DNA from: an uncultured Candidatus Saccharibacteria bacterium
GTDB lineage: Bacteria > Patescibacteriota > Minisyncoccia > SW-4-49-11
DNA: 51,169 bases
Reading direction: 5' to 3'
Assembly (NCBI GenBank): GCA_964633865.1
Contig: CAZWIJ010000009.1
Location: 876-52,044 of the forward strand
This document shows, one piece after another, positions 2,684-40,763 of this stretch. The translations under genes and the position numbers were made by a program. The first letter of the stretch is position 1. Each line of letters starts with the position of its first letter. The notes under the pieces are model-generated. The model ran no database searches and had not been told where the DNA came from. It saw nothing but the letters and a program-made list of their open reading frames with translations.

Positions 2684-3136
2684 ATGAAAGTTTATATTGG
2701 TTCAGATCACAAAGGTTATAATCTTAAAAATAAAATTATAGAGTTATACCAAAATAATCTAAATTATGAAATTATAGATTGTGGTAATGAAGTATTAGAT
2801 CAAAATGATGATTATGTAGATTATGCTTCTTTGGTGGCTAAAAATGTATCAAAAGATAAATATAGTCTTGGTATTCTAATTTGTGGAACAGGTTTTGGAA
2901 TGTGTATTTCGGCAAATAAAATAATAGGAATTAGAGCTATTTCATCACATAATAAAGATGAAATAAAGGTGGCAAGAAGTCATAATCAGATAAATATTTT
3001 ATGTCTTGGAGCTGATTATGTATCTAATGAAGATTTATCAGAATTATTACAATCTTTTTTTGAGACAGAAATTTATTCGGAAGAGAGACATCAGAGGAGA
3101 ATAAATAAAATTAGTAGTTTAGAAAAAGATTTGTAA
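2684..3136 (+). CDS. rpiB: Ribose-5-phosphate isomerase B (RpiB/LacAB family)
   Basis: IGSDHKG, DYVDYA, GILICGTGFGMCISANK, ARSHN, ERHQRRI. Confidence 0.95.
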   Translation: MKVYIGSDHKGYNLKNKIIELYQNNLNYEIIDCGNEVLDQNDDYVDYASLVAKNVSKDKYSLGILICGTGFGMCISANKIIGIRAISSHNKDEIKVARSHNQINILCLGADYVSNEDLSELLQSFFETEIYSEERHQRRINKISSLEKDL

Positions 3137-17440: not shown

Positions 17441-18109
17441 TTAATTCCAGCCAAGAAAATAAACAATCCCAGCAATAATTATTCCACTAATTATTGTAGT
17501 AACTAAAGGGTGATTTGTTATAATCTTTATCAAATTAAACCATTTTCCTTTACTAGGTTGTGATTTGGTAGTTAGTTTTTTATCTATTGATTTTAAAGAT
17601 TCTATGATTTTTTTTCTGGTTTCTCCATTTGGGTCAAAGATTATTTTATTATATTTTTTATCTAAAACTTCAATTACCTTATCATCAGTAATTTCGAAAA
17701 TTTTTTTTAAACCTAATAATTCGGTGTATGCCCCTTCTATCCAATCTTTACATGAACCATCTGTATCTCCTCCTATTACATATATAGTGGTCGAAGAATA
17801 TTCAAAGCTTATGTTTATCCCGATTTGTTTATATTTATATCTATCTAATTCGAATAATGACTCACCCTCTCTTACACTAATTTTAACATTTGAAATAATG
17901 TCATTGTTAGATAAAATCAAGGAAACTTCTTTTGAGTATTCATCAAATGATTCACAAATTCTTGTATGACCTTCTTGTGACTCCAAAAGGATTTCTACAT
18001 TTGATTCTGGAAATCTTCGCACAAAAAATTCATAAAGTTTTTGTATGTCTAGGGAAGACACAATCCAATGATTAATTTCTATGTTTGGTTTACTATACTC
18101 GTTTCTCAT
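17441..18109 (-). CDS. Hypothetical protein with C-terminal membrane anchor
   Basis: 222-aa ORF ending HPLVTTIISGIIIAGIVYFLGWN; has its own promoter. Confidence 0.7.
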   Translation of the reverse strand: MRNEYSKPNIEINHWIVSSLDIQKLYEFFVRRFPESNVEILLESQEGHTRICESFDEYSKEVSLILSNNDIISNVKISVREGESLFELDRYKYKQIGINISFEYSSTTIYVIGGDTDGSCKDWIEGAYTELLGLKKIFEITDDKVIEVLDKKYNKIIFDPNGETRKKIIESLKSIDKKLTTKSQPSKGKWFNLIKIITNHPLVTTIISGIIIAGIVYFLGWN

Positions 18110-18156: not shown

Positions 18157-18223
18157 GTTTGTAATAATCTACCTGCCTGAGCAGACTGGTGCATAAGCAT
18201 ATAATTGCTAAGTTTTTAAAAAT

Positions 18224-18257
18224 AAAAAAGCTCGATGATATAATTTATTATCGAGCT
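18224..18257 (-). terminator. Intrinsic terminator downstream of the adhesin-sortase unit
   Basis: agctcgatgata-taatt-tattatcgagct hairpin preceded on + by A6, which is a U-tract on the minus strand. Confidence 0.75.
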
Positions 18258-18375: not shown

Positions 18376-18981
18376 TTATTTTTCTTCTTCGAATGGAATT
18401 GCGATTATGATATGTCTTTTGTGAGCTGTCCATATGGGTGTGCATGTATATAATGTTAATTTCTCAGTTTCTGATTTACCAATTAGTTCTATTTGGTCGG
18501 CTTCTGCTTCAAAACTCTCTGTTACTTTATAGAGATTCTCTTTTCCATTCCAGAAAATTTGAATTATTTCACCTACTTTTAAGCTAGGTAAGTGATAAAA
18601 GGAGTTATCTCCATTTTTGTAGCTGAATCTATGCCCTGCCATAACTATATTTCCTCCGGCTCCTGGAACTGTAGAGTTAGTATCATGCCAGATGTTCTTG
18701 TTAGTCAAACTGTTTCCACCTGACTTGATGGTTGAATTTACTCCAAGTGATGGAATTACAAGAGTGTTTTCTTCTGGTGGACTAAATGTGGGTTCTGTAT
18801 TTTTGGTTTGCTCTGGAGTTAGTATGTCTGATGAATATGGGAATAGGGGAGTATCTGGTATTGGATTAAAGATTCCATTTATGGCAGGAGCCAGTAGGAA
18901 ATAAACTAGAGTTAGAATAATTCCTACTGTTAGCATCCATTTGGATATTTGGAGGTATAAGATTAGTTCTTTATATTTCAT
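18376..18981 (-). CDS. Sortase (class D/E-like)
   Basis: N-terminal TM, LVIPSLGV, PGAGGNIVMAGHR (His), LTLYTC (Cys), KRHII (Arg). Confidence 0.93.
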   Translation of the reverse strand: MKYKELILYLQISKWMLTVGIILTLVYFLLAPAINGIFNPIPDTPLFPYSSDILTPEQTKNTEPTFSPPEENTLVIPSLGVNSTIKSGGNSLTNKNIWHDTNSTVPGAGGNIVMAGHRFSYKNGDNSFYHLPSLKVGEIIQIFWNGKENLYKVTESFEAEADQIELIGKSETEKLTLYTCTPIWTAHKRHIIIAIPFEEEK

Positions 18982-21900
18982 CTTTTAGGTGCTTTATCGG
19001 AAGAAATTTTTCAATCATAAATGTTAGGATCAGAGCGAAAGATGTTACTAAGGCGATTATAACTCTAACTTGGATTCCATTCCCTGCTTGATCTAGAGTT
19101 TCACTAACTTTAGGCTGTCTTTCCCAGACGGTAGAATCATTTCCTTCCATTGTCCTTGGGTCATTAGAAAGGCTTGCTATTTGTCCATACAAAATATCAT
19201 CCTCGAAGGTTCCGTTTCCATTTTCGTCCCAATGTGCTTTAGCTTGATTGGTTAGTTTTTGGATTTCTTCTGGTACAGTTGTACGGAATATTAATACTAC
19301 TTCGTTTAAGCCATCATCTTCATCTAATTTACCTGGATCAGGAGCAATCATTCCTTCCCATTCTACTCTATTTAGTTCAGGGTTGAAGTCACATCTAGTT
19401 GTGGTAGAATCACCTCTAGCATCACATTTGAAGCTATCTTGAACATAAGTGGTTCCTTCTGGTACATCATCAGTTAATAATACATTAAGAGCATCTGTAT
19501 TTCCATCATTTAGCCAGACCATTTTCCATTCGAATTCAGGTAATCCTCCGGCATTGAAGGTTTTTAGAGATGATGGGGGATCAAAGACGGATGTATAAAG
19601 TAGAGGTGTTATATCTGATGCAGTATTGTTACTCAAATTAATATCATCTCCATTTTTCTTATCATCTTCAATAGATACGGACAGGCTTAATGTTTCTAAA
19701 TCGGTTGGGGCATAGCCTATTACTTTTAATGTCAGTACAATTTCTTTTTCGGTTTCTTCTACTGGTAGGGATCCTACTTCAAAGATACACTCTCCTGGGT
19801 GCTTATTATCTGTACAAATCCATCCTGAAGTGCTGGTGTTAGGGAAGTATTCTGAAAATTCTGGTATTTTGGTTCTTATTACTACTCCGGTTGAGCCTTT
19901 TGTTCCTATATTTTGATAAGTAATTTTGTAATTTACTTTATCATCTGTGAAAGCTTGTAGTCCACCGTCATCTACTTTTATTTGGAGATCAGGTTGCCCC
20001 AATACAGTAACGCTAACAGTAGTCTGATTGTTTTCTGTTTCATCAAATCCTCTTGCTTGATTATCTGAGACAGAGCTGTCTGATTTTAGTGAATCAGTTC
20101 CTGCTGGCAGATTTTTGTCTATAATTACTCCAAAATTAATCTCAAAGTTTTTTGTTGGAGCTAGTTCTTGTGAATTAATATATGTACAGGTTGATCCTGC
20201 AACTCCTCCGTTGGTACAGGTCCATCCAGGTGTGCTTTGGGTAGGGGAGAAGGTGGTATTATTAGGAACAGTCTTGTTTATGGTTGGGTTTATTGCTCCT
20301 GCAGTACCGATATTCTCGGTTTTGATTGTATAAGTGACTAATTCTTGAGTATTGAATGTATCTTTGTTTACTTGCTCGGTTAATTTTAAATCAGGTTTGA
20401 TTACGATAAATGAATCTTCAGATTCTATCTCACCATCTGATGTTTCATCTCTTTCTTCTGAGTGGGAGTTTCCTGGCATAGAGGTTGCTTTGGTGACTAT
20501 AGATTTATTTGCTATTATTGTACCTTTGAATACAGTATTTTTAACTGATGCCTTGAAAGTCACTGTACAACTTTCGTTGATTGGTAGATGTTCTATGCTG
20601 ATTTCTAAACTATCTGCTGATTCTGTTAGGTTTGTTGTTTCAGTTACACCTGCGGTACAAATTAGTTCAGCAGAGTTAGTTGTATAGATTAGGCTGTCCG
20701 GAGTTAATTCTTCAAAAGTATTAATTAGTTCTAAATCATGCCCACCAGATGTTCCAGTATTTGTGACTGTATAGCTAAGATTTATTTCTTGGTTTGGAGT
20801 TGCTTCCGTTTCTGATATACTGTGTGTTATCTCTATATTTGGTTCAATTATACTCATTGTTATTGTTCCTGCATCTTGGATTGGATCAGAATCTTTTTGT
20901 CCAGTTGCTTGTGATTGGAAAGAAACAGAGTCTATATTGGAGGGGATATCTTTTACGGTAGCTATGACTTTTAATCCAATGAAATTATTAGGACCATTTC
21001 CATCAGTTGGGTTTAGTATATTGGTTAGGGTTACTTCAATATCATTTCTATCTCCAGCAATGGTTGAGATGGATGGGGTAATTGTTCCACCACCAAAATT
21101 TTGAGACATATATCCAAAAGAATCTGCTGAATTTGTGATTAGTTCTACATTATCTACGGTAAGATTTTCTGGTATTGAATCTCTTATTACATAACTGTTA
21201 GTTGTACCTTCTTCAAGATGTGCACGAATAAAGAATATGACTTGTTCTCCAACTGCCACTTTGATATCAGGGGTTTCTGGAGTAAATGTATTGTTTGAGG
21301 ATACGAAGAACTTAGTGATTTTATTGCTATCTGTAGTAACTGAGTTATCTAAGGAATTAATTGAATAGTCATTTAGATTTGTGGTACCAGTTTCTGATAT
21401 ATCGTAGGTTCCATCAGTCCCATTTCTTTCTCCACTGACATTTCCATTGAGGGAACTCCAAGTAATATTAACATTATTTTCTAGGGTTATATCAGGATTA
21501 ATGAACTCGTCAACATTAGTAACAAGTTCTATTGAGAGACTTGCTCCAAGTGGTAGATCAAAGGTTCCATCTGTGGAATTTGGAATTAATAAGTCCTTAT
21601 CATTGCTTATTTGGTAAGAAGGAGCTGTTATTCCAGTTGGAATGATTGTAACACTTTCTATACTTTCAAATTGATCAGTAAGAAAATCTGTGAGACTTAT
21701 ATCATAAGCATTAGCATCGCTTAAGGAATTATGAGAGACATTGATTGTATAAGTTATTTGTGAGTCTTTATTTACTATAGTAGGGAAGTTAGTTGCTAAT
21801 TTGGTTATATCTAAAATTGATTCAATTATACTTATTTGAGGAGCATTTGAAGCATTAATGGTTTCATCTAATAAGGTGTTTGGATTGGTAAAAATTAGTT

Positions 21901-24900
21901 CTGAACTATTGGTAAGAGTATCGCCTCTTTGGTTTCCTAGTTCATTGACTACTTTTGCTGTTAAAACAACTTTGAAGGTATTATTGCTTCCATCTCCATC
22001 TGCATTTACTGTTACATTTCCAAAATCAATATTTACATCTTCACCAGAACTACTTCCACCGGTAATAGTTGGTGAGGATGTTGCAGTTCCATTAAATCCT
22101 GTGGTATCAACGGTTGCATTCTGATATATAAGTCCTGTAGGTAATAAATCTTTTAGACTGACATTTTGTATTATCCCTTCTGGAAGGGTTGCAATAAGTT
22201 CATAGGTAATAGTTTCTCCGATAGTATAGTCGGAACTGCCTATTAGGTTAAGTTCATGAGTAGGGCCTGCGCTAGTGAAACTTTCTGAGGTTTTAGCCTG
22301 ATAATCATCTAATCCTGATGCACCTGATTCAGTCAGGTCATAATTATTATCATCATCTCCTGATCTTGAATTAGTTCCGCCACCATTTAGAGATTCCCAT
22401 TTAACGGTTACATTGTTGACAACATTTTTTATGGGGGCAATTTCACTATCTAAAGTGGCTTCATAGGTTGCCTCTAGTGTTGCTCCAAGTGGAAAGTCAA
22501 ATGTGTTTATTATTAGATTAGGATCACTTGTGGTTGAAGTATTTGGAGCGGTAAATCCAGTAGCATTTACTCCTATTACATTGATACTATCAAACTCAGC
22601 AGGCAAGAAATCATTAATATTTACATCAAAAGCGTCGGCATCGCTATTGGTATGATGACTTAATTCTATTTGGTATGTAACAATATCACCTCCGTCATAA
22701 GATGGTTGACTGGATATAATTGATTTAGAAACTTCTAGAATTGGTTCTACTATGGTCAAATTAGCTCCTCCATCCGTATCATTTACATTTACTGTTGATG
22801 GAATATCTGGTTCGGTAAATTGTAGTCTGGTAGTGCTTGAAAGAGAGTCTCCTTTCTGGTTCCCAATTTCATTAAGTAAAATTGCTGTTATTTGTACAAC
22901 AACAGATTCATCTGTTTCAGAGAGATTTGAAGGGATGGTTACATCTCCAAAATTAAATTCTACTTCTTCACCAGAACTACCTGAGGAAGTAACGGTTGGG
23001 CTTCCAATTGATCCAGAGAAATCATCGGTAAGTAAGGTTGAAGATAAATCTGTGGTTAGTAGATTATATCCTTGGTATTGCATACCAGTAGGTAAATCTA
23101 AGAATACTTTTAATCCTTTGGTTACTCCTTGGTTTAGGTTTACGAGTACATTATAGGTTACAGTATCTCCAATATTATAAGTGGTGTCCGAAAGAGTTTT
23201 TAGGTCTACAGTTGGTGAAATTGTACTGAAACTAGCTGTGTCTGAAGTGGTGCTAGTTCTCTCTATATCTCTATTACTTGGATCTAATCCAGGAGTATTT
23301 GATTCAGTTGGATTTCCTGTAGTTCCATTTCCTGGAAGAGAGGTTGAAATGGTTTGAGCATTATTTGTGACTGTCTCTTGTGCTTCAATTGTATCCGTTG
23401 TATTCCCTGTCACTTCTACAATTACAGAGTCACCAGGTCTTAGTTCATTTATAGTGAATTCTATATTGTTTCCTGATGAATTGTCAGTAAGTATTGCATA
23501 CCCGGGATTACTAATGATACTAGTAGATATGTTTTCAATTTTTCCGGATACGGTATCAGTAAAAGTATTATCAAAGGCAGTGGATTTATTGGTTCCACTT
23601 GGATTGGTCATAGTTATTCTATATGTAACAGTATCACCAGCTTCTTCGGGAGTTTCTGTAAGAATTTTATCAGTATTAATTTGAGATGATAATACTTGGA
23701 TTCTATTTTTTGCAAGGTTGGTAGAAGTAGTAATGTTAGTACCATTTACAATAATTCTAAATTGATTATTAAGTGTAAGCCCTTCGGTATTACCGCTAAC
23801 ATTAAGTAATAATGCATTAAATTCAATAATGATATATTCTTCATCAGAATCATTATCACTATTTATTATATCTCCCAATTTAAAATAAACATCATCTCCC
23901 CCCGCATATCCGTAATTATCAACATTTGAGGTGGCATTACTTGAGACGGCATCATCTGGAAGAGGACATTCAGGAGATAGTGTATTAAGATTACTTGCAT
24001 TCCCAAATAGATTTAAGTTAGGGTTTGCTCCACCATCACAAGCAATATTAGCTGGAATCAAGGTAGAAGAAGTGATTCCTGTATTATTACTTACAAAAGC
24101 TACTTTTGCTGTACCATCATTTAGGAATTGAACTCCATTTGGTATAAGATCTAAGAATTGAACATTGGTTGATGTTGTCTCAGCAACTCTAGTAACTAAT
24201 CTATACCTAACAATCTCCCCAATAGCTAATTGTTGAACTCCTCCGCTGTTCGTTGATGTATGACTTTCTGAGGTTGCAGATATGCTTTTATCTGGAACTG
24301 GAGTAAAGATAGTAAGATTAGCATTGGTTGTTTGGGTATATACTTCTTCAGTGGAGTCGGGACTATATATAGATTGTTGTCCTGGGTCTCCTGGAAGTGA
24401 ACTGTAAGAAACACTAAGAGTATTAGTAATTACTTGCCCAATAGACACACTATTATCAACTGTAACATTAAAAGTTATAGTCTCAGTAGTATTTGGAGCC
24501 ATTGATGAATATTGAGCAGTTATAGTCCCACTTGATTCTGAACAAGAAGTTTGGTTTCCAGTATCATTAGAGCATGCAAGATTACCAGCAAATGTTAGTC
24601 CGGCAGGTAGGATATCTGTTGCTTGTATATCATATCCTGTGGTTTCATTGGCACCATTGTCTTGACGAAGAGTAAGTGTAACACCTATTATATCGCCGGC
24701 ATCAGCAGTGTTAGGAGATAATGCTTTAGTAAGTACAAAATCAGGATAATGTATTCTTACATTTGGAGCAGCATCGGTAATTGTATTGATTGGAGATCCA
24801 GATATTGGTCCCCATCTAAAGCTAGCAGCATTGTTTTTATCTGAGCCTTTGACAGTATTCTCGTTTGAAACTACAACAGTATAAATCACAACAATAGTTT

Positions 24901-27900
24901 CATTCTTAGTATTGTCGGTATTATTATTTACTAAGGTTCCAAAGTTAAAATTGATATTTCTTGCATTTGGGGAGACTGTTGGATTAGTTGGGTCATTACA
25001 AATATTAGTATTAAAATCATTGGATCCATTACTTGTTATATCAGATGTTGGCACTCCATCACTAAATGTTTCTATGGAAGAACATTCTTGAAATATTAAT
25101 CCGTTGTCTAATGTGTCTTCCAAAATAGCATTCTGCATAGTTCCTTCTGGAATTGTTAGCTCAACTTGATAAGTAAGAATTTCTCCTTCTACGGCAGTAT
25201 TTCCACTGGTGGATGCAAGATTAGTTCCAAGAATATTCTTATTAATTTCGGGACTTGATATAGTAGCTTGGCTGTTATCTATAGTTTCTACATTAATATA
25301 ATTTGGTCCAGAGGCATCTCCCGAGAATCTAATTAATTCAGTTGTATTTTCAAAAGTTTGCTCGGGTTCAACTGTAGAATTCATCATTACATCATAAACA
25401 ATTACAGCAAGGTTAGTCCCAGAATTCTCATCGTAGGTAGATAGGGGATTATCAAGTCTAATACCGTCTTCAAATAAAGGATTGGTATTAGAGCCATTAA
25501 CAGCAGACCAACTAAGAATATTTCCATTCCCATCAGTTATACAAAGAGTCCCTGTTTGGTAGGTGTATTCTGCAGGAAGGATATCTTTTATGGTAACATC
25601 AAAGGCTCCTTGAGGGGCCCCACCAATATTTTCAGCTATCACCGCAAAAGAAAGAATATCATCAGAATCTATATTATCAAAATTCGCGGTAATAGGGTTT
25701 GTTTCGATTTTAGAACTAGTAATAGACCCTCCAGATGAGAATCTAGAGCAAGAACCTCCTGGAGCTGAGAAAACTACCCCAGTTGGGACTGGATTACTAA
25801 TCAGTACCATATCATCATCAACAAATGTAGAGTTAGGGTTGTTTGAGATGATAGCTCCTTTAGATATTTTTACATCTGGCATTTTTAGCTCAATTTGGGT
25901 TGTAGCTGATGTAGCAAAAGATGTTCCAAAAGTATTATCTATAGCAGAAGTTACTTGGTTTGTAATAAATAATCCATCTGCAAATTGGTTATTACTTACA
26001 GTTACTGTTATTAGTAGATCAATAACACTCTCGGAACTGATAGGATCGTCAAAATCGCCATAATTCATTGTAAGTTTATTTGAATTTAGGTCTATAGATA
26101 AAGTCGGTTGCAATCCTAATGGTCCGAGAACCCCTTGTGATATACTAAAAAATGTATCATCATTACTAAGTTGTATTACTCCAGGGGCAGGGGGATTATT
26201 GGAAGCATTAGTATCAAAAGACCATTCACTTAATCCATTTGCAGTCCCATCAGAATTTGGATTTGCTACATCAAACACTGGCAATGGGAAATAATCCTCA
26301 AGTACAAGTGATTCAAAGTCAGAGGAAGAAATAGGAAGTGAAATTTTATAGGTAACATCATCACCAGGAGAGATTTGGTATTCAGTAAAAGAAGAATTAC
26401 CATTAATAGCATAAACTTCTTTAGTGAGTCCAAAAAAATCTATAGTGCCTATCCAACTGCTAATGTCAGCTTGATTAAATCCTGTTAGACTTGATGCATC
26501 AGAAGTAGTTATAAGATTACCTTCAATAGTAACATTATTAGAGACATTATCACCGAGTCCAACATTTTGATTACCAACTACATCTGTAAAATTTTCTTGT
26601 ACAACAGCTCTAAAAGTAACTGTACCATTAGTAGAGCCTCCATTAAAAGTATCACAATTCATATTTCCACCTGTTCCTATTTGAGGGATACATCCTCCTA
26701 ATAAGATTCCATCAAGTGAATAAGAACTTTCAATAAGTTGATTTGAAATATCAAATATATAAGTTTGAGTACCATCAAGTGGGAGTATTTCTGGAGAACC
26801 ACCTGTAAAATTGTCTTGAATTGTAAGATTACCACCTCCAAAAGTAATATTCTCAGTTAAATTATTTTCAGTGATATTAAGGGTTGGAGTGAAGGTTTCA
26901 TCTATTCTTAGTCCATCAGAGAGAACATCAGTAACAACTATATCATCAAATCCAAAAAAGTCTGAAAGACTAAAGTCAAGAGTATACTCTATGACATCGC
27001 CAGGTGAAAGCCCAGCTGAACCTGAATTAGTAACAATATTACCTGATTTTCGAATAACTATGGATTTAGCTATTGATGTATCATCTATAGGAGTAATATC
27101 CAAATTAAAAATTTCGGTTGAGTCTCTTGTGTCTATAGGGATCCAAGCTGCAGATAGAGAAATATCATTAGTAAAGAGAACCTCATCTCCAGTAGTTGGA
27201 GAAATAACAGGATTGGAAGAATTGTCTTCATAATCTACAAAATATTGAAAACTTATAGAATGTGAACCTGCACCAAGAGAATCACAAGTAACTTCAAAAA
27301 TATTATCAGCTGGCAAAGTAGGGGTTGTAGTTACAGAACATCCAGTAGGTAAAGAGGCACTTCCTAGATAAGTAACTTTATCAGAAAGAGTATTGGTAAA
27401 GATAACATTATTACTTGGATTCCCAGATTCACCTATAGTTTGTCCAGAAGCCACTTGAATTTGAGAAGTATAAGTTTGTGGTGAATTCGGACCTGAAGGG
27501 ATCTCATTTTCTGGTGGGTTATCAAAGTTATTGACTGTAACCAAACTCGGACTAACAGAATGAGTAGCCCATTCTGATGGCTGAGGAAGAGATACATCAT
27601 AAGGAGTATAAATAGATGGATCTGTAGAAGGATTATTAAGTGAATCAGCACCAAATCTAAATCCACCAGTCGCAATAATATCAAGTGGAGTTGAGATATC
27701 TGCTAAGTTACTAATAGCAAGAGACAAATTTAGAGTTGATGTAGGCTGGTCTGAGACATAAGATCCAAATGGTAGAATAAATACTAAATAAATATCCCCA
27801 GCAGTACCACATACTGATCTAGGTGAATTAGAAGAATCTACAGCTAAAGGGTGATTGACACAACCTGTACCTGCTCCATCATCAGGAAAAGTTGTAGAAA

Positions 27901-28306
27901 GAACAGGTGTAGAGGATATACTATCAATAGTGGCTGAATTGAAAGTTATCCCATCAGCTTCAAATCCTGGATTATAAGGAAATACTCCATCAGAACCATT
28001 TCTAGGTAGAATGACATCAATAAATGGACCAAATCCAGCATCATTGCCAGCATTGTTAAATGAAATTTGAGTACTAAAAGTTTCTCCAATCAGAGGAGTG
28101 TTTGTTCCAGATATACTCACTTCAGGTATAGCAGCTGCTTGTATAAATTTATAACCTACAAAAGATACAAGAGTTAAGGTACCAATTATTAGAGGTGTGA
28201 TTATATAAGGTTTTTTTGTTTTTAGGAAGAGGCTTTTAAAATTAGATTTAAAAATATTAAGTAATTTTGATGTTTTTGAATGCCATTTTTTTGTTAATTT
28301 TGACAT
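18971..28306 (-). CDS. Giant surface protein/adhesin with repeated isopeptide-forming fimbrial (RrgB D2-like) and DUF11 Ig-like domains and a C-terminal sorting signal
   Basis: Likely start MSKLTKK at 28306 (ORF open from 28357). Signal peptide ends FIQAAA. Many K...GE/DxVTYxI...DxLPxG...N units. C-terminal LDQAG + hydrophobic helix + charged tail. Confidence 0.85.
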   Translation of the reverse strand: MSKLTKKWHSKTSKLLNIFKSNFKSLFLKTKKPYIITPLIIGTLTLVSFVGYKFIQAAAIPEVSISGTNTPLIGETFSTQISFNNAGNDAGFGPFIDVILPRNGSDGVFPYNPGFEADGITFNSATIDSISSTPVLSTTFPDDGAGTGCVNHPLAVDSSNSPRSVCGTAGDIYLVFILPFGSYVSDQPTSTLNLSLAISNLADISTPLDIIATGGFRFGADSLNNPSTDPSIYTPYDVSLPQPSEWATHSVSPSLVTVNNFDNPPENEIPSGPNSPQTYTSQIQVASGQTIGESGNPSNNVIFTNTLSDKVTYLGSASLPTGCSVTTTPTLPADNIFEVTCDSLGAGSHSISFQYFVDYEDNSSNPVISPTTGDEVLFTNDISLSAAWIPIDTRDSTEIFNLDITPIDDTSIAKSIVIRKSGNIVTNSGSAGLSPGDVIEYTLDFSLSDFFGFDDIVVTDVLSDGLRIDETFTPTLNITENNLTENITFGGGNLTIQDNFTGGSPEILPLDGTQTYIFDISNQLIESSYSLDGILLGGCIPQIGTGGNMNCDTFNGGSTNGTVTFRAVVQENFTDVVGNQNVGLGDNVSNNVTIEGNLITTSDASSLTGFNQADISSWIGTIDFFGLTKEVYAINGNSSFTEYQISPGDDVTYKISLPISSSDFESLVLEDYFPLPVFDVANPNSDGTANGLSEWSFDTNASNNPPAPGVIQLSNDDTFFSISQGVLGPLGLQPTLSIDLNSNKLTMNYGDFDDPISSESVIDLLITVTVSNNQFADGLFITNQVTSAIDNTFGTSFATSATTQIELKMPDVKISKGAIISNNPNSTFVDDDMVLISNPVPTGVVFSAPGGSCSRFSSGGSITSSKIETNPITANFDNIDSDDILSFAVIAENIGGAPQGAFDVTIKDILPAEYTYQTGTLCITDGNGNILSWSAVNGSNTNPLFEDGIRLDNPLSTYDENSGTNLAVIVYDVMMNSTVEPEQTFENTTELIRFSGDASGPNYINVETIDNSQATISSPEINKNILGTNLASTSGNTAVEGEILTYQVELTIPEGTMQNAILEDTLDNGLIFQECSSIETFSDGVPTSDITSNGSNDFNTNICNDPTNPTVSPNARNINFNFGTLVNNNTDNTKNETIVVIYTVVVSNENTVKGSDKNNAASFRWGPISGSPINTITDAAPNVRIHYPDFVLTKALSPNTADAGDIIGVTLTLRQDNGANETTGYDIQATDILPAGLTFAGNLACSNDTGNQTSCSESSGTITAQYSSMAPNTTETITFNVTVDNSVSIGQVITNTLSVSYSSLPGDPGQQSIYSPDSTEEVYTQTTNANLTIFTPVPDKSISATSESHTSTNSGGVQQLAIGEIVRYRLVTRVAETTSTNVQFLDLIPNGVQFLNDGTAKVAFVSNNTGITSSTLIPANIACDGGANPNLNLFGNASNLNTLSPECPLPDDAVSSNATSNVDNYGYAGGDDVYFKLGDIINSDNDSDEEYIIIEFNALLLNVSGNTEGLTLNNQFRIIVNGTNITTSTNLAKNRIQVLSSQINTDKILTETPEEAGDTVTYRITMTNPSGTNKSTAFDNTFTDTVSGKIENISTSIISNPGYAILTDNSSGNNIEFTINELRPGDSVIVEVTGNTTDTIEAQETVTNNAQTISTSLPGNGTTGNPTESNTPGLDPSNRDIERTSTTSDTASFSTISPTVDLKTLSDTTYNIGDTVTYNVLVNLNQGVTKGLKVFLDLPTGMQYQGYNLLTTDLSSTLLTDDFSGSIGSPTVTSSGSSGEEVEFNFGDVTIPSNLSETDESVVVQITAILLNEIGNQKGDSLSSTTRLQFTEPDIPSTVNVNDTDGGANLTIVEPILEVSKSIISSQPSYDGGDIVTYQIELSHHTNSDADAFDVNINDFLPAEFDSINVIGVNATGFTAPNTSTTSDPNLIINTFDFPLGATLEATYEATLDSEIAPIKNVVNNVTVKWESLNGGGTNSRSGDDDNNYDLTESGASGLDDYQAKTSESFTSAGPTHELNLIGSSDYTIGETITYELIATLPEGIIQNVSLKDLLPTGLIYQNATVDTTGFNGTATSSPTITGGSSSGEDVNIDFGNVTVNADGDGSNNTFKVVLTAKVVNELGNQRGDTLTNSSELIFTNPNTLLDETINASNAPQISIIESILDITKLATNFPTIVNKDSQITYTINVSHNSLSDANAYDISLTDFLTDQFESIESVTIIPTGITAPSYQISNDKDLLIPNSTDGTFDLPLGASLSIELVTNVDEFINPDITLENNVNITWSSLNGNVSGERNGTDGTYDISETGTTNLNDYSINSLDNSVTTDSNKITKFFVSSNNTFTPETPDIKVAVGEQVIFFIRAHLEEGTTNSYVIRDSIPENLTVDNVELITNSADSFGYMSQNFGGGTITPSISTIAGDRNDIEVTLTNILNPTDGNGPNNFIGLKVIATVKDIPSNIDSVSFQSQATGQKDSDPIQDAGTITMSIIEPNIEITHSISETEATPNQEINLSYTVTNTGTSGGHDLELINTFEELTPDSLIYTTNSAELICTAGVTETTNLTESADSLEISIEHLPINESCTVTFKASVKNTVFKGTIIANKSIVTKATSMPGNSHSEERDETSDGEIESEDSFIVIKPDLKLTEQVNKDTFNTQELVTYTIKTENIGTAGAINPTINKTVPNNTTFSPTQSTPGWTCTNGGVAGSTCTYINSQELAPTKNFEINFGVIIDKNLPAGTDSLKSDSSVSDNQARGFDETENNQTTVSVTVLGQPDLQIKVDDGGLQAFTDDKVNYKITYQNIGTKGSTGVVIRTKIPEFSEYFPNTSTSGWICTDNKHPGECIFEVGSLPVEETEKEIVLTLKVIGYAPTDLETLSLSVSIEDDKKNGDDINLSNNTASDITPLLYTSVFDPPSSLKTFNAGGLPEFEWKMVWLNDGNTDALNVLLTDDVPEGTTYVQDSFKCDARGDSTTTRCDFNPELNRVEWEGMIAPDPGKLDEDDGLNEVVLIFRTTVPEEIQKLTNQAKAHWDENGNGTFEDDILYGQIASLSNDPRTMEGNDSTVWERQPKVSETLDQAGNGIQVRVIIALVTSFALILTFMIEKFLPIKHLKDEI

Positions 28307-28347
28307 AAATTTTAAGATGTATTTAGTGTTTATAATTGTACATATTA

Positions 28348-28376
28348 ATTTTAGCATTATAAAATATAGAAGTCAA
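28348..28376 (-). promoter_or_regulatory. Sigma70 promoter of the adhesin-sortase unit
   Basis: Minus strand TTGACT (28376-28371), 17-bp spacer ending TG-c, TAAAAT (28353-28348). Confidence 0.65.
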
Positions 28377-34249: not shown

Positions 34250-34582
34250 AAGTCAAAGATTTAGATAGTTACATATAATCTTGTATTATATGAGGAAAGT
34301 CTGGACACCTCTTAAATAATTTAAGAAATGATAATGGGAGAGAGCCCCATCACTTATCTTATAGATAAGTAGGGGCAGTGTCGCAGAAACAAAACATTTT
34401 GGGGAGACCTAATCTAAGGTGAAAAGAGATAAACCCTATCAGGTGCAAGGTCGTGCTTCTTGCATAAAGAGAAGAGAACCGCAAAGAATATTTTGGTAAC
34501 AAAATATCAAGATAAATTACTATCGCTTAATAAAGTAACACATATATTAAGTACAGAATCCAGCTTATAAAATCTTTGACTT
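34250..34582 (+). ncRNA. rnpB: RNase P RNA (compact bacterial type, ~333 nt)
   Basis: P1 aagtcaaagattt/aaatctttgactt; CR-I GAGGAAAGTCTGG; CAGTGTCGCAGAAA; GTGAAA; TAAACCC...GTGCAAG; AGATAAAT; CR-V ACAGAATCCAGCTTA pairing with CR-I. Confidence 0.93.
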
Positions 34583-34604
34583 ATGTGTTATCTAATTAAA
34601 TAAT

Positions 34605-40666: not shown

Positions 40667-40741
40667 GGCCATATCGTCTAGTCCGGTCTAGGACATCTCC
40701 CTCTCACGGAGGAAACTGGGGTTCGAATCCCCATATGGCTA
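40667..40741 (+). tRNA. tRNA-Glu (anticodon CTC); CCA not encoded
   Basis: Acceptor ggccata/tatggct, D arm gtct...ggac, anticodon stem tctcc/ggagg with loop ctCTCac, T arm tgggg-ttcgaat-cccca. Confidence 0.93.
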
Positions 40742-40763
40742 CTAATATTATACATTATTTTTT

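Follow-up and report, generated by a model that had tools for sequence, protein, structure and literature searches.

The question raised by the locus described here is how a bacterium with a genome of 1.09 Mb may fix to its surface a protein of some 3,100 residues. The window, i.e., the whole stretch of 51,169 nucleotides (nt) that was analysed (contig CAZWIJ010000009.1, positions 876 to 52,044, of assembly GCA_964633865.1), stems from an uncultured Candidatus Saccharibacteria bacterium, the genome of which consists of 19 contigs and is 100% complete; DNA of the locus occurs in aquifer and groundwater metagenomes. On the reverse strand lie a gene for a giant surface protein and, directly following it, a gene for a sortase, designated P0002 (Table 1). 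Both probably constitute an operon of a groundwater Patescibacteria bacterium (Paceibacteria/Parcubacteria-type), the products of which would be a surface protein of fibrillar form and a sortase that processes it and links it to the wall. Such wall anchoring is well known, and the variation seen here is conserved, though modest; its new element is the signal L(D/E)QAG together with a long-branch sortase.

Table 1. Features of the two-gene unit, with positions in the window (ORF, open reading frame; HMM, hidden Markov model; aa, amino acids)
Feature	Position	Strand	Basis
Giant surface protein gene, 3128 aa from first ATG	18971..28357	(-)	ORF; DUF11, TIGR04226 and TIGR01451 above curated cut-offs
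Adjacent sortase P0002, 201 aa, N-terminal membrane helix, His117/Cys180/Arg189	18376..18981	(-)	ORF, HMMs, alignment, model
Candidate promoter-like site, TTGACT-17-TAAAAT with TG extension	28348..28376	(-)	hexamer scan
Intrinsic-terminator-like hairpin with T-run, closing the two-gene unit	18218..18257	(-)	folding, z score
Signal-peptide-like N-terminus: basic region, 20-residue hydrophobic stretch PYIITPLIIGTLTLVSFVGY, AAA/IPE (slash, putative cut)	28133..28306	(-)	leader alignment
Conserved N-terminal region, residues 76-440, possible binding tip	27038..28132	(-)	alignment, model
Stalk of tandem DUF11/CLIPPER and RrgB-D2-type (CnaA-like) domains	19598..27037	(-)	HMMs, self-comparison, profile search
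Last divergent DUF11-type domain (VFDPP...WKMVWLNDGN...HWDENGNG), directly before the sorting signal	19133..19597	(-)	HMM, relatives
Pentapeptide L-D-Q-A-G, residues 3088-3092, candidate sortase cleavage motif	19082..19096	(-)	translation, ortholog, relatives
C-terminal hydrophobic helix VIIALVTSFALILTFMI, 17 residues, 3099-3115	19013..19063	(-)	translation
Cytoplasmic tail EKFLPIKHLKDEI, 13 residues	18974..19012	(-)	translation

A preliminary description of this DNA, made from the sequence alone, had proposed a unit of two genes with one promoter and one terminator, and most of this layout was confirmed. The end coordinate then given for the giant, 28306, is that of a second in-frame ATG (residue 18), which would yield 3111 aa instead of 3128. 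The ATG of the sortase (18981-18979) lies within the final codons of the giant, whose stop codon is at 18973-18971, and the resulting overlap of 11 nt is the one reported earlier. About 119 nt beyond the sortase stop a hairpin follows, with a G+C-containing stem of 8 bp (AGCTCGAT/ATCGAGCT, 18257-18229) and a T-run to about 18218; its energy is -11.3 kcal/mol (z -3.88, 1 of 200 shuffles being equally stable), and it was overlooked by the automatic scan because the loop has 13 nt. For the promoter, the hexamers proposed at 28376-28348 do exist, but the frequency of such matches is at chance level in this AT-rich window (65 found versus 59.0 +/- 5.8 in shuffles), and a second candidate is present at 28440-28412. 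If the site at 28376-28348 is used, translation would have to start at the second ATG. The gene junction and the LDQAG motif were spanned by contigs from two further sequencing runs with 0 differences, although these runs may share one sampling campaign.

Translation of 18974-19111 (-) gives the C-terminus of the giant as KVSET-LDQAG-NGIQVR-VIIALVTSFALILTFMI-EKFLPIKHLKDEI. This is the tripartite layout of a sorting signal, with the pentapeptide where it had been placed before, 6 further residues, a helix of 17 residues and a tail of 13. The consensus L-P-x-T-G is not present, Asp standing in place of Pro and Ala in place of Thr, and a comparison of the last 69 residues with the NCBIfam models gave no match at E <= 5. 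The closest relative of the locus was a metagenome contig of 2.3 kb (L025), which was found in a scan with P0074, while a metagenome scan with P0002 confirmed no relative. This contig contains the same gene pair with an overlap of 4 nt, and identities are 78% over the last 570 residues of the giant and 78% for the sortase. Its giant ends with KTTEK-LEQAG-NGIHLR-IIISYIALLAVVITLMI-DRFIPLKVPKR, the tail being more basic than that of the LDQAG copy; L(D/E)QAGNG was thus retained between the two while helix and linker diverged.

Twelve members of the protein family of the giant bear a signal of the type [LV]xx[TA]G at the equivalent position, followed by a helix and a basic tail. Ten of them have Thr at the fourth position: LLPTG (P0005, P0008), LAQTG (P0016), VVRTG (P0014, L134), LIRTG (P0018, identical with L133), LSKTG (L132), LAETG (P0112), LENTG (P0113) and LASTG (P0115). 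The two members with Ala-Gly are the LDQAG giant and its ortholog from L025. Beside one of these relatives, at L133:12259-14160 (-), a frame of 633 aa stops after PGLVRTGGY without helix or tail, perhaps through truncation or a frameshift of the sorting signal.

The second gene of the unit encodes a protein with the catalytic triad of a sortase. P0002 scored 73.7 bits with PF04203 (cut-off 26.6) and 46.6 bits with TIGR01076 (cut-off 39.35); His117, Cys180 (in TLYTC) and Arg189 were invariant in an alignment of 22 sequences, and their conservation in the clade described below is 100%. An AlphaFold2 model (mean predicted local distance difference test score, pLDDT, of 81.5) contained a helix (residues 2-38) and then 8 strands, i.e., the sortase barrel with an N-terminal membrane anchor, and had 139 matches in the PDB at E <= 0.001, the top ones all being sortases (Foldseek probability 1.00). 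The protein ends 5 residues past the strand 188-196 and has no C-terminal helix. None of the class cut-offs of NCBIfam was reached (score/cut-off in bits: class D 48.9/165, SrtD 48.3/140, E 42.7/160, C 36.7/160, GN 35.6/158.25, F 27.4/166), and no class A or B model was among the matches at E <= 0.01. Assignment to a class by fold search was attempted and fails, since structures of classes C, D, A and E match about equally, with 19-27% identity.

The genome encodes three sortases, namely P0002 and the paralogs C1 (C1:19680-20480) and C6 (C6:6808-7464), so that the word "dedicated" used earlier for P0002 has the adjacency in its favour and the number of enzymes against it. In a quick IQ-TREE analysis of 140 sortase domains, P0002 and the sortase of L025 formed a pair with 100% support, whose stem measures 1.65 substitutions per site as compared with a median of 0.42 for the end branches. 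This pair falls inside a clade of 118 rows of sortases from the Candidate Phyla Radiation (CPR) with a value of 99 in the Shimodaira-Hasegawa-like approximate likelihood ratio test (SH-aLRT). The C1 and C6 paralogs stand apart from P0002 and group with the other sortases of the family, whose neighbours read LHDTG, LQDTG and LQSTG. P0002 differs in 11 of the 40 columns which are conserved to at least 80%, including G96N (a position conserved to 99%), P101T, E167I and, beside the catalytic Arg, L190H.

As to the giant itself, a secreted protein of Ig-like domains of isopeptide type had been predicted, and the family searches agree with this. The N-terminus resembles a signal peptide; its AAA/IPEVS aligns with the leader ends AAA/DPS and AAA/VPS of relatives, and cleavage would be expected at that place. 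In scans of the whole protein DUF11 (PF01345) reached 115.9 bits in 4 stretches (cut-off 24.6), TIGR04226 (RrgB_K2N_iso_D2) 111.8 bits in 3 stretches (cut-off 30) and TIGR01451 102.5 bits (cut-off 24). When the protein was scanned as ten overlapping chunks of 400 aa, DUF11 was found in 7 of the 10 and TIGR04226 in 5 (49.0, 46.4, 36.6 and 51.3 bits, plus 25.4 below the cut-off), the first chunk alone being without a match. All 7 DUF11 matches of the genome fall in this gene. Windowed BLAST self-comparison, by which the internal repeats were mapped, revealed a two-domain unit of about 315 aa repeated around residues 1660-2470 and DUF11 repeats of about 134 aa near the C-terminus.

DUF11, now renamed CLIPPER, occurs in fibrillar adhesins and has been demonstrated by experiment to be an isopeptide domain; according to the crystallographic report it is CnaA-like, in which an Asp catalyses the Lys-Asn bond, and some members are without the isopeptide residues (PMC12617251). 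The CnaB fold named in the preliminary description is thus to be replaced, since DUF11 and RrgB-D2 are both CnaA-like. Six DUF11 domains of the giant were chosen for alignment with a crude regular expression for the triad, which served this purpose only. Lys, Asp and Asn are kept in three of the six (1203-1330, 1870-1992 and 2178-2303), and the first-strand Lys aligns with that of the CLIPPER structure 9IFR. A search of the whole giant against PDB sequences with phmmer gave 0 matches; a profile of the six domains matched GhpA (9FLP, 1.1e-9), the pilus subunit EbpB (9LJ6) and CLIPPER (9IFR, 0.004).

The last domain scored 24.0 bits with DUF11 (cut-off 24.6) and 28.2 bits with TIGR01451 (cut-off 24). 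A domain of this type (VFDPP...W.MVWINDGN...WDENG...) was also noticed in P0112, P0113, P0115 and P0116, proteins of differing N-terminal architecture (beta-helix, SpaA/SdrD), where it always immediately precedes the sortase motif or a fused sortase.

From these data the following sequence of events may be proposed. A precursor of about 3,100 residues would be exported through Sec, and its CnaA-like DUF11/CLIPPER and RrgB-D2 stalk would fold outside the cell, where Lys-Asn isopeptide bonds might form within some of the domains. By its C-terminal helix and tail the precursor would be retained in the membrane until one of the three sortases, presumably the adjacent, membrane-anchored enzyme, which would be translationally coupled by the overlap of 11 nt, cuts between Ala and Gly of L(D/E)QAG and transfers the giant to a peptidoglycan precursor. 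Since MraY-type genes and genes for penicillin-binding proteins (PBP) are present in the genome, an acceptor in the wall is plausible. The product should then be a tether, covalently bound to the wall and hundreds of nanometres long, which could bind a cell or a surface.

The conserved N-terminal region would be a possible place for such binding. It has 38-46% identity to six relatives, and no match to Pfam or NCBIfam was obtained in the chunked HMM scans. It was modelled as tandem all-beta domains of the immunoglobulin (Ig) type (pLDDT 79.5); the fold search gave only low template modelling (TM) scores, 0.20-0.32, with integrin legs, C-domains of AgI/II, Cna and ClfA. In the ESM Atlas, residues 75-440 have DUF11-like neighbours at 0.94-0.95, which, as recognition is below the usual mark, can be regarded as leads only. 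A distinct ligand-binding tip domain was not recognised in these 365 residues by family scans, model or fold search.

For the last 259 residues of the giant there was no match in 400 other genomes of the class. When the N-terminal region was compared with 400 genomes from across the phylum, 6 had a match, and these belong to a single family (6 of 23 of its genomes). Outside the CPR, relatives were found in Anaerolineae and in Marinicella gelatinilytica, whose protein of 3124 aa is collinear with the giant over more than 2200 residues with 26% identity. In this protein, as in several other relatives, the C-terminal signal is of non-sortase type, a hydrophobic helix followed by an Arg-rich tail. 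In P0009, P0042, P0053, P0064, P0116 and P0117, on the other hand, a sortase catalytic domain is fused in frame right after a motif of LPxTGFAP type without an intervening membrane helix, so that in these Chloroflexi-like relatives substrate signal and enzyme are present in a single polypeptide. The anchor of the family is thus swapped by lineage.

Attachment of an episymbiont to its host was the function originally suggested for the giant; it would follow from what is generally said of the phylum rather than from the locus itself. A fibre which binds to mineral or biofilm surfaces, or which serves as a protective or spacing coat, is a tentative alternative and somewhat unlikely. It would agree with the aquifer or groundwater habitat, with the occurrence of the family in free-living Anaerolineae and in one Marinicella species, and with the N-terminal region modelling as Ig-like only; however, cultivated members of the phylum live attached to host cells, as stated in PMC11623550, and the best solved match of the stalk, GhpA, is a protein for catching prey.

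How unusual the signal is was judged from other sortase loci. A profile search for CPR sortases yielded 288 loci in species-representative genomes; the best 80 of the 288 were kept, which were labelled mostly Saccharibacteria, the others being Dojkabacteria, Roizmanbacteria, Parcubacteria, Paceibacteria, or of other or no taxon label. A rule-based census over 101 loci ([LIVM]xx[TAS]G, helix and Lys/Arg at the C-terminus) gave 43 distinct C-terminal signals, with Pro at position 2 in 14 and another residue in 29, and with Thr (34), Ser (5) or Ala (4) at position 4. These counts include the doubtful rows MAIAG, VQPAG, VTETG, three xPSG and LPDSG, and omit true cases at L082, L092 and L105; a stricter automatic census was set aside, since true signals were lost and false ones retained. 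The four Ala cases are LEQAG of the L025 ortholog, LPQAG (L011) and two doubtful short frames. Absence of Pro is thus the norm beside CPR-type sortases and not a special property of the giant, as had been supposed; the other credible sortase-type signals of the genome, as judged by us, are LHDTG (a protein of 218 aa, adjoining the C6 sortase) and LEDTG (677 aa). Ala for Thr is the rare feature, although it is not unique. A large substrate right beside a sortase is found in CPR loci L077, L082, L095, L105 and L051 as well. Sortases are present in more than half of CPR genomes (fam000526; PMC6744442). In the CPR sortase literature, as far as it was covered, i.e., outside supplements and subscription journals, only the presence of sortases was found and no description of sorting motifs.

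Several observations weigh against the processing of the giant by P0002 as outlined above. A membrane helix and a basic tail had been reported at first; the helix is there and the tail contains Lys, but K, K, H, K stand beside E, D, E, and the net charge is about zero. Conservation of the Ala is seen in one ortholog pair only. The isopeptide residues are found in three of the six DUF11 domains aligned; in the three C-terminal ones (2503-2640, 2652-2786 and 2787-2920) they are missing or substituted, and two of these have a Cys pair in place of the triad. For three N-terminal relatives with a complete C-terminus (L132-L134), which belong to another CPR family, 6-8 kb of downstream sequence was fetched and contained no sortase; the pairing is therefore not obligatory for the protein family. 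Furthermore, LPQAG with a helix ends a protein of 403 aa at L011 (G024:C22), which has a sortase of another CPR clade at a distance of 58 nt, and is a second, independent signal with Ala at position 4. Finally, the long branch of P0002 indicates divergence and not, by itself, a change of specificity.

Some of these points could be taken to mean that a housekeeping-type sortase, C1 or C6, processes the giant, that P0002 is redundant or otherwise employed, and that L(D/E)QAG is a tolerated variant. With three sortases in the genome, very loose positions 2 and 3 beside CPR sortases, the LPQAG protein of L011, and relatives lacking an adjacent sortase, this would be conceivable, and SrtA of S. aureus accepts LPxAG proteins, according to PMC3436756. 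Yet the overlap and the terminator unite both genes, the pairing is retained in the L025 ortholog, and the triad of P0002 has stayed intact despite fast divergence, which argues for a retained specialised function; we regard processing by C1 or C6 as distinctly unlikely.

It is quite improbable that there is no processing by a sortase, the giant staying in the membrane by its helix and the pentapeptide being a decayed remnant of LxxTG. The hallmark Pro and Thr are both missing, the tail is not net positive, and NCBIfam did not recognise the last 69 residues; but L(D/E)QAGNG was kept in the ortholog while helix and linker changed, the sortase gene is intact and overlapped in both copies, and decay should not be expected to spare Leu, Gly and the spacing.

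In pilus loci a specialised sortase is situated next to its substrate, alongside housekeeping sortases elsewhere. The layout of the present locus is similar, the class C sortases are among the closest solved structures (21-24% identity), and the model TIGR04226 derives from the pilin RrgB; P0002 might then be a pilus-type (class C-like) ligase joining the C-terminus of the giant to a Lys of another surface protein, e.g., an LxDTG protein, which would be anchored by a housekeeping sortase, with the giant as the tip of a two-part fibre. This is hardly to be expected, since the unit contains no second pilin-like gene (the flanks encode RecJ, a CobW-type GTPase and a DUF2207 protein), the score with the class C model was 36.7 bits (cut-off 160), P0002 lacks the membrane helix that class C enzymes usually have at the C-terminus, and class D and class A structures match P0002 about as well.

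Processing by P0002 thus being preferred, it may be asked whether enzyme and signal are specific for each other. The long branch and the changed columns would fit a retuned enzyme. A private specificity of P0002 appears plausible, yet it is not required by LxxAG signals, because Ala at position 4 occurs also beside an unrelated CPR sortase and in ordinary SrtA substrates; both S. aureus and S. uberis have substrates of the LPxAG type (PMC3436756 and PMC2657157). That L(D/E)QAG and the fast-evolving P0002 are a private orthogonal pair within an unclassified CPR sortase clade, with the enzyme retuned to a signal without Pro and Thr, is rather unlikely. If true, the giant tether could be routed apart from the two LxDTG proteins, e.g., to another acceptor in the wall, another site or at another time, and the pair would be a naturally orthogonal ligation tool.

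Among the known systems close to the locus are the fibrillar adhesins of Gram-positive bacteria which have an isopeptide stalk and are anchored by a sortase (LPXTG; CLIPPER, 9IFR, PMC12617251). Common to both are a signal peptide, a long tandem CnaA-like Ig stalk with Lys/Asp/Asn positions, a pentapeptide with helix and charged tail, and the presence of sortases and wall-synthesis genes; unlike these adhesins, the giant has L(D/E)QAG without Pro or Thr and a weakly basic tail, the triad in only some stalk domains, and a host with a Patescibacteria genome of 1.09 Mb. With the CPR-type sortase family (fam000526, PMC6744442) P0002 shares the motifs GHRFSY and TLYTCTPIWT as well as its position in the CPR clade, but together with its ortholog it forms a long separate branch with the altered columns mentioned above. 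The proteins named "isopeptide-forming domain-containing fimbrial protein" by NCBI (Anaerolineae, Marinicella gelatinilytica) have the mature N-terminus GYGPFIDL... and the collinear stalk in common with the giant; the CPR members are anchored by LxxTG or L(D/E)QAG with a helix, the others by different ends.

Specialised sortases beside a substrate with a variant motif offer another parallel, since here likewise one divergent sortase adjoins one substrate departing from the other motifs of the genome. SrtB of S. aureus, for instance, is paired with the motif NPQTN, and a class D sortase of Bacillus is labelled as LPxTATN-specific in NCBIfam (NF058671). SrtD of C. perfringens (PDB 4D70) was the best profile match to P0002 among solved structures (1e-19). 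P0002 differs from such enzymes, having about 21-26% identity to them and 48-49 bits with the class D models against cut-offs of 140-165. The grappling-hook protein GhpA of Aureispira (9FLP) is, like the giant, a very large surface protein with a DUF11-type domain and the best solved match of the stalk; however, it has 5898 aa, belongs to a Gram-negative predator, and matches the stalk in one domain only. A sortase is not known to be involved in the GhpA system.

The unit is flanked by unrelated housekeeping genes, namely those for RecJ, a protein of 222 aa, the CobW-type GTPase, the DUF2207 membrane protein and an ABC transporter. The 222-aa protein (17441-18109 (-)), beyond the terminator, belongs to no Pfam family, has one C-terminal hydrophobic helix and apparently forms a separate transcription unit. 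The CobW-type gene is present in 9 of 16 other genomes of the family, and when six fetched stretches of 19 kb were compared with the genes of the window, it alone was matched, apart from weak ABC-ATPase matches in four. Gene order is not conserved among the relatives and thus gives no indication for or against an insertion of the unit. The G+C content of the two genes is 0.35, versus 0.24-0.32 in the neighbours; horizontal transfer was considered on this ground and rejected, since the excess is at codon position 2 (0.423) and reflects amino acid composition, while the G+C content at the third position (0.186 for the giant, 0.267 for the sortase) is, for the giant, inside the range of the neighbours. 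The window also carries an ordinary bacterial class A RNase P RNA (34253-34583 (+), 105.2 bits, gathering score 100) and an ordinary tRNA-Glu(CTC) at 40667-40742 (+).

Elsewhere in the bin, contigs C13, C14, C17, C18 and C19 have 40-44% G+C, versus 26-29% in the other 14, and may represent contamination, a mobile element or DNA of another organism. Three consecutive small paralogous genes at C1:30476-32179 have in common a C-terminal F.YATAGGDE... with a hydrophobic helix after it, and their products resemble a family of small proteins that are secreted or lie in the membrane. At C2:18322-19071 and 20217-20972 (-) there are paralogs of about 250 aa which end with PIWPLILGIVLL.IGLGVFIYFRIKKK, i.e., a helix and a basic tail, without a pentapeptide of sortase type.

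The signals beside CPR-type sortases are mostly of the form [LI]xxTG without Pro, and predictors based on LPXTG therefore miss most surface proteins of the CPR. If P0002 prefers L(D/E)QAG, a new specificity would be at hand, which should be useful for orthogonal protein ligation; otherwise the locus would be an ordinary example of the sortase-adhesin theme. A life attached to other cells is assumed for the Patescibacteria, but their means of holding on, type IV pili excepted, are poorly known. The locus offers a concrete candidate for such a device, i.e., a single giant fibre which could be covalently anchored and which has an enzyme of its own.

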